Below, one piece after another: positions 2,957-3,327 of a DNA stretch of 21,195 nucleotides. How positions within the stretch are numbered: position 1 is the stretch's first letter; the number at the start of each line of letters is the position of its first letter. The translations under genes and the position numbers were made by a program. The DNA is taken from the IMG/VR virus record IMGVR_UViG_2534681940_000040; one strand, written 5' to 3'. The notes beneath the pieces were generated by a model. It did no database searches and was not told where the DNA came from. It saw only the letters and a list, made by a program, of their open reading frames with translations. The DNA is from a virus (taxonomy: Duplodnaviria; Heunggongvirae; Uroviricota; Caudoviricetes).

Positions 2957-2977
2957 AACAATGAACAGAGCACCATC

Positions 2978-3327
2978 ATGAAAAAAACGCTAATAATCCA
3001 TACTCCAAATTTCGTAATGGCGTAGAACGCCATGTACACCACGTCGCTACCAGTGCATCACGTAGTAACAGTCGCTATAACCTGAACGAGACGCATGCAA
3101 CACCGGATGGCCACGCTGTAAAACAAATCGGCGAACATGCCTGGCTGATTGAGAAAGCTGGAATCGTGGTCCACAAATGCCCACGCAATCCGTTTACCGG
3201 GAACCGCATTTTTGCATTGAACTGCGGCGACAATCACTTCGGGCAGGATTTCACATTATACGAAGCACTTCGCACGGTTGATCGTCTGCTTCGCGGGCAA
3301 AGTTTTATTAAACAGGCTGATTTATAA
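2978..3327 (+). pseudogene. frame-disrupted early gene (no start codon in the long open frame)
   Basis: An open frame of about 120 codons (2965-3327) ends 10 bp before the next gene but contains no ATG. ATG 2978 sits in another frame and stops after 15 codons. Restoring one base in the A7 run at 2981-2987 would join them. Confidence 0.4.

Follow-up and report, generated by a model that had tools for sequence, protein, structure and literature searches.

In the defective P2-like prophage of E. coli O157:H7 that is called Sp13 in strain Sakai and CP-933T in EDL933, the gene ECs_2623 encodes WP_000739029.1, annotated as a 'DUF4761 family protein'. In Sakai, resequenced EDL933, EC4115 and PNUSAE019785, this gene is a single ORF of 351 nt and 116 aa. 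Its codons 2 to 4 contain a run of eight A's, the intact gene beginning with ATG AAA AAA AAC (MKKN...).

Pyrosequencing, semiconductor and early long-read platforms are known to under-call homopolymers. As for what the cell itself may do with such runs, single-base deletions at a C-AAA-AAA sequence near the start codon are rescued by -1 frameshifting, at 25–60%, in overexpressing E. coli (Belfield et al. 2007, PMC1851650), and bacterial transcriptional slippage is productive for the most part when a run has 9 bases and sometimes when it has 8 (Baranov et al., PMC1088944).

Here, we analyse a stretch of 21,195 nt deposited as IMG/VR virus record IMGVR_UViG_2534681940_000040 (referred to, over its whole length, as the window). 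Its DUF4761 gene resembles ECs_2623 in operon place, in downstream genes and in DNA sequence minus one base; the reference has eight A's (A8) and one 116-aa ORF, whereas the window has seven (A7) and a split frame. A preliminary description of the window, made from its letters without database searches, had proposed that this gene had lost one base in the A run, together with two comparable losses elsewhere. Our analysis indicates that, in all likelihood, the genome itself does not contain the apparent DUF4761 frameshift.

Results

The DUF4761 gene and its early operon

The window corresponds to the Sp13/CP-933T prophage and shares about 99.9% identity with many finished genomes. Integrase, DUF2511, Flk_N-like and repressor genes follow one another on the minus strand; after the repressor come an Arc-like gene, a Cox-like excisionase/repressor gene (2753–2956, plus strand; PHROG 575, E = 1e-27), the DUF4761 gene, a 92-aa early gene (3338–3616, plus strand; PHROG 3800, unknown function) and a DUF4754 gene, and the series continues to replication gene A. 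The assignment of the gene to an early operon in the preliminary description was correct: the operon is that of a P2-like (Peduoviridae, Xuanwuvirus-type) prophage, and the DUF4761 gene sits just after the Cox-like gene, its upstream neighbour.

The plus-strand frame 2965–3327 encodes 120 residues followed by a stop, without a single Met. The stop codon TAA (3325–3327) is separated by 10 bp from the ATG of the next gene at 3338. The ATG at 2978–2980, which annotation and alignment identify as the native start in the four finished O157:H7 genomes named above, lies in another frame and, with one A missing, opens a spurious ORF of 15 codons (2978–3025, plus strand; MKKTLIIHTPNFVMA and a stop). 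The remaining DUF4761 coding frame (2986–3327, plus strand; NANNPYSKF...KQADL and the stop), delimited by translation, Pfam and the family alignment, joins the frame of this ATG only if the run at 2981–2987 (plus strand), where alignment and allele counts place the apparent 1-bp deletion, holds eight A's. The first canonical start within the open frame is the GTG at 3166–3168 (plus strand), from which gene callers derive a 53-aa fragment; judged from the ORF list and the structure model, it is not the native start. The preliminary description had already pointed out the absence of ATG from some 120 codons, the 10-bp spacing to the next gene, the short out-of-frame reading from 2978 and the fusion of both frames by one added A, and all four observations were reproduced, the fused frame giving one DUF4761 product.

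Is the long open frame a real gene? Because the A-restored product matches the whole DUF4761 model of Pfam (PF15958; 214.6 bits, E = 2e-64, model positions 1–105 of 105, with a gathering threshold of 27 bits), the frame is not a chance one, which bears out the earlier impression that it looked protein-like. The 53-aa GTG fragment scores 108.4 bits and covers model positions 53–105 only. As given, the window contains no single ATG-initiated ORF of about 112–117 aa spanning the DUF4761 domain; such an ORF is present once one A is added, and all finished relatives have one ATG-initiated ORF across the whole domain. A protein search returned 144 relatives, all from Enterobacteriaceae and mostly of 112–117 aa (mode 116), every one of them ATG-initiated at the equivalent position. 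The preliminary description had expected a single intact ORF of about 117 aa in related prophages and had named, as the contrary outcome, a homologue that was absent or started at an internal GTG or TTG; what we found in the relatives is A8, a length of 116 aa and always an ATG equivalent to that at 2978. Of the columns that are fully or almost fully conserved in an alignment of 50 family members, 28 precede the internal GTG; the first half of the frame does code for protein. A pairwise synonymous/nonsynonymous test of this half against phage 520873 (7 synonymous and 14 nonsynonymous codon changes) was uninformative, the N-terminal tail being variable, and the family alignment was used instead.

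The AlphaFold2 model of the A8 protein has a mean pLDDT of 69, with values of 70–86 over residues ~31–108, and shows a predicted disordered basic N-terminal tail, a five-stranded beta-sheet and a C-terminal helix. Since the GTG at 3166 falls within predicted strand beta-3, the 53-aa product would be two strands short. Foldseek searches with this model had no significant hit in the PDB (best E = 0.42); the BFVD hits (best E = 7e-3) were all uncharacterised phage proteins. The protein belongs to PHROG 2492 ('unknown function'), and DUF4761 was not mentioned in the literature that we searched. A putative zinc finger (HKC...C..H residues) was considered and dropped, as the cysteines are not invariant.

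Some other places of the window differ from the finished genomes or are annotated in more than one way. The 205-aa ORF at 5287–5904, called 'antirepressor' in Sakai, contains the whole 76-aa 'derepression protein' gene (5598–5828) in a different frame, and PGAP retains only the latter. A full IS629/IS1203 copy lies at 18743–20053 between the truncated gpD gene and an IS30 fragment; in EC4115 and PNUSAE019785 the IS30 fragment has its IS629 neighbour on the opposite side, and no IS629 copy is present there in Sakai and EDL933. The IS629 of the window differs from the EC4115 copy at 8 positions, and its first 1,057 bases are a 100% match to a partial IS at EC4115 locus positions 10685–11741; its placement may reflect either a true rearrangement or a misassembled repeat in the draft. 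Five substitutions and one 1-base insertion (11080, 11385, 12559, 14979, 18470 and 18497) are found in none of the four finished relatives. The insertion, at 18497, is an A outside any homopolymer; the variant at 11080 is also in the AIFM01 contig described below, the other five sites lying beyond the compared stretch.

Length of the A run among genomes

Alleles were counted with 70-nt queries; a single indel brings the identity of such a query below 99%, so that the alleles fall into distinct identity bands. Of the complete E. coli genomes, 403 have A8 at the DUF4761 tract, one has A7 (AR-0427) and one A9 (55989), variant lengths accounting for about 0.5% of the genomes; on IMG/VR contigs it is A8 in 42 of 43 and A7 in 1 of 43. 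At the protein level, the exact 116-aa sequence was found on at least 1,000 contigs and the 53-aa fragment on 13. Over positions 2940–3340, A7 versus A8 is the sole difference between the window and the four finished O157:H7 genomes, all of which read A8, in line with the 1-bp loss originally proposed. The A8 tract is the longest homopolymer of the 18.7-kb collinear region. Phage 520873, at ~90% identity, likewise has A7, with cluster P0012 as its A8 counterpart, and the allele occurs in two diverged prophages.

In both complete genomes with a variant tract, PGAP calls the gene a pseudogene, 'incomplete; missing N-terminus' (F4V39_RS03600, A7, in the E. coli O157 strain AR-0427 and EC55989_RS10785, A9, in 55989). 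As in the window, a change in tract length breaks the gene; unlike the window, these are complete genomes without its other private homopolymer deletions, and the DUF2511 gene of AR-0427 is intact, so that these tract variants may be real. Could the A7 of the window be a real mutation too? One A would then have been lost by replication slippage, and DUF4761 would be a pseudogene of a decaying defective prophage, with a 15-aa peptide made and the rest untranslated. Homopolymer slippage is indeed the commonest natural indel, and the A7 and A9 pseudogenes, each in one complete genome, speak for real tract variation at low frequency. Besides, Sp13 is defective, a setting in which real frameshifts would be tolerable, and it has IS insertions and a real frameshift in the tape-measure gene already. 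The same gene is inactivated by another route in contig AVSE01000072.1, which keeps A8 and has TAG in place of TGG at window position 3143, splitting DUF4761 into calls of 55 and 53 aa. To judge by its sequence, this is an independent inactivation, and such a stop shows that the gene is dispensable in lysogens. All the same, we regard a real slippage loss in the window as unlikely, on account of the indel pattern of the draft to which the window belongs.

Indels of the source draft

Over 11,313 bases the window and the reverse complement of AIFM01000030.1, from draft assembly GCA_000249415.2, are 100% identical; they have in common the A7 run as well as two further private deletions of one base each. 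When AIFM01 was compared with finished EC4115 over 20.3 kb, which takes in 9 kb of chromosome outside the prophage, five indels were found, each of them a 1-bp deletion, in A8, A7, T6, A8 and A6 runs; homopolymer under-calls thus amount to about 1 per 4 kb over the 20.3 kb examined. Two further drafts gave the same kind of result over this length, with 4 indels in AIFP01 and 3 in AIFF01, all deletions in A runs. Altogether, the three drafts have 12 indels, and every one is the loss of a single base from an A/T run of at least 5 bases, without one insertion, yet runs of this length make up 3% of the sequence. Deletions are commoner in longer runs, and some of them lie outside the prophage, one within ftnA (AIFP01/AIFF01 set). 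None of the three drafts' deletions is present in JAOWOJ01, a recent assembly. From their consecutive accession numbers we infer that AIFM01, AIFP01 and AIFF01 come from one sequencing project; a literature search with the draft accession numbers gave no matches.

The deletions are shared among the three drafts in a mosaic manner that fails the four-gamete test and is not tree-like. In the case of the DUF4761 tract, A7 is common to AIFM01 and AIFP01, and these drafts differ at SNPs that separate Sakai from EC4115 sequences (window 5537), which means that they do not share the allele by descent. A real slippage loss would thus have to coexist with like deletions recurring in sister drafts along no tree and with no insertions. 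It would also require that one strain had three private deletions in 10 kb together with the rare A6 allele (8 of 5,026) at the junction tract described below, a combination whose joint probability is of the order of 1e-10 or lower when the frequencies in finished genomes are taken as independent. In the 9-kb chromosomal flank of AIFM01, both deletions are intergenic and no housekeeping gene is affected. Selection on real mutations would look alike, which is a point in favour of slippage; however, only six coding runs of at least 6 bases exist in this flank, and housekeeping-gene deletions are for this reason barely expected under either model.

Control tracts were also consulted. At the conserved tract of the yecA-integrase junction, a neutral control, 5,018 complete genomes have A7 and 8 have A6, yet A6 is what AIFM01 and AIFF01 read, two of the three drafts, for which the chance probability is ~8e-6. 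A look-up blind to the A run of DUF4761 gave A7 in AIFP01, AIFM01, AIGS01 and AFDT01, and A8 in AIFF01 and in 5 of 5 unrelated assemblies; A7 is present in 3 of 4 AIF/AIG drafts versus 1 of 405 complete genomes (Fisher p = 1.4e-6). The yecH-tyrP intergenic A tract (EC4115 L077 position 8948), A8 in EC4115 and A7 in all three drafts, was discarded as a control: both alleles are common across E. coli, with exact matches to A8 in 698 and to A7 in 783 complete genomes. This deletion, one of the 12 in the drafts, may be real, as the site is naturally polymorphic for A7 and A8.

Since the indels are limited to deletions and to homopolymers, depend on run length, belong to one draft series and do not follow a tree, an under-call is the most likely origin of the A7. 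On the sequence comparisons above we hold it very probable that a true A8 was recorded one base short in the draft assembly, with sequencing chemistry or the assembler as the presumed cause of the missing A. The draft series behaves as expected from homopolymer under-calling, with deletions only, located in A/T runs, length-dependent and specific to the series. The true sequence would contain eight A's after the ATG and one 116-aa DUF4761 ORF; the draft would report long A/T homopolymers repeatedly one base short; and the recording of A8 as A7 would create an apparent frameshift that has no biological basis.

Other apparent frameshifts in the window

The preliminary description had treated the A7 run, the run at 1342–1346 and a break in the tape-measure gene as three single-base homopolymer losses of one kind. 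This view stands for the first two and fails for the third. In the DUF2511 gene, a private deletion shortens T6 (as read on the plus strand) to T5 at 1342–1346 (minus-strand gene; alignment), and it is of the same class as that of the A7 run. In contrast, the tape-measure break, when compared with phage P88, whose gene is intact, consists of GGG becoming GG at about 14191–14193 (minus strand), a short run within a locally diverged patch. It is common to every finished O157:H7 genome examined, where PGAP calls the gene 'frameshifted', and is therefore a real mutation fixed in the lineage.

Alignment revealed one more private homopolymer deletion, A6 to A5 at 10417–10421 (plus strand), near the 3′ end of a ParR-like plasmid-stability gene. 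The preliminary description did not mention this deletion, and the gene is no longer called in the draft; the deletion is also in sister draft AIFP01 and absent from AIFF01.

The T run at 1342–1346, at the 5′ end of the DUF2511 gene, varies in length or sequence among prophage variants (L054, L057, L058, L060 and L061): JAOWOJ01 has one extra T (T7), L057 a similar two-base excess over the window and CP038383 a C-to-T substitution. A 101-aa DUF2511 product was tried as a marker of T5 and rejected, as an internal start is also called on intact T6 and the tract varies among variants.

Recoding at the A run

Can the A7 frame be rescued by the cell? According to this explanation, the run would be a slippery G-AAA-AAA-A at which -1 frameshifting, or insertion of an A during transcription, restores MKKNANN..., tract length acting as an expression switch. 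A -1 shift on ATG-AAA-AAA-ACG, read from the sequence, does yield the A8 protein exactly, and on G-AAA-AAA the re-pairing would be perfect in the A site with a first-position mismatch in the P site, as for the C-AAA-AAA of PMC1851650, whose rescue near the initiation codon is known in E. coli under overexpression. That sequence, in attB1 of pDEST17, resembles the window in having N-AAA-AAA near the start and in the correction of a single-base deletion by a -1 shift, but it was studied in a T7 overexpression experiment, whereas the site in the window is known from sequence alone, is unconserved and has a deletion that is probably not real. Transcriptional slippage on A runs is likewise documented (PMC1088944), although A7 is below the run lengths at which it is usually productive in bacteria, and natural variation of the DUF4761 tract goes in both directions.

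Several points speak against a programmed role. The A run exists only in a sub-lineage starting with MKKN, most members starting with MKQQRN, MKQRRN or MKERRN, and the tract is an in-frame, single-frame A8 in 403 of 405 complete genomes, so that neither the shift site nor the two-frame arrangement is conserved or maintained among DUF4761 homologues. In the RNA, no stimulatory structure is found 5–9 nt downstream of the run; the nearest hairpin is ~27 nt past it, with a fold z-score of -1.5. A phase-variable contingency locus finds no better footing: with variants at the low frequency given above, there is no frequent ON/OFF polymorphism of the tract, and most family members lack it. For this window, moreover, the question is void if A7 is an artefact. 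We therefore consider recoding of the A7 run highly improbable. To the same slight degree would we credit the related idea that A8 is a slippage-prone switch and that the strain has a real A7 allele, partly rescued, with DUF4761 down-tuned rather than dead.

Discussion

What does a missing A tell about this prophage? The main value of the result concerns the data quality of the window and of its source draft. It would be wrong to take the apparent frameshifts at the A/T runs at 1342, 2981 and 10417 for pseudogenes, recoding sites or phase-variable loci. At the same time, because the tape-measure frameshift is real, the apparent frameshifts of the window need to be judged case by case.

Regarding the gene itself, DUF4761 is a conserved early-operon protein without a characterised member. 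An early accessory role is suggested by its conserved place directly behind the Cox-like gene, and the basic tail, predicted to be disordered, hints at nucleic-acid binding; both proposals are speculative. The knowledge of P2-like phage biology is unchanged by these results, and the DUF4761 gene found here is an ordinary member of its family.
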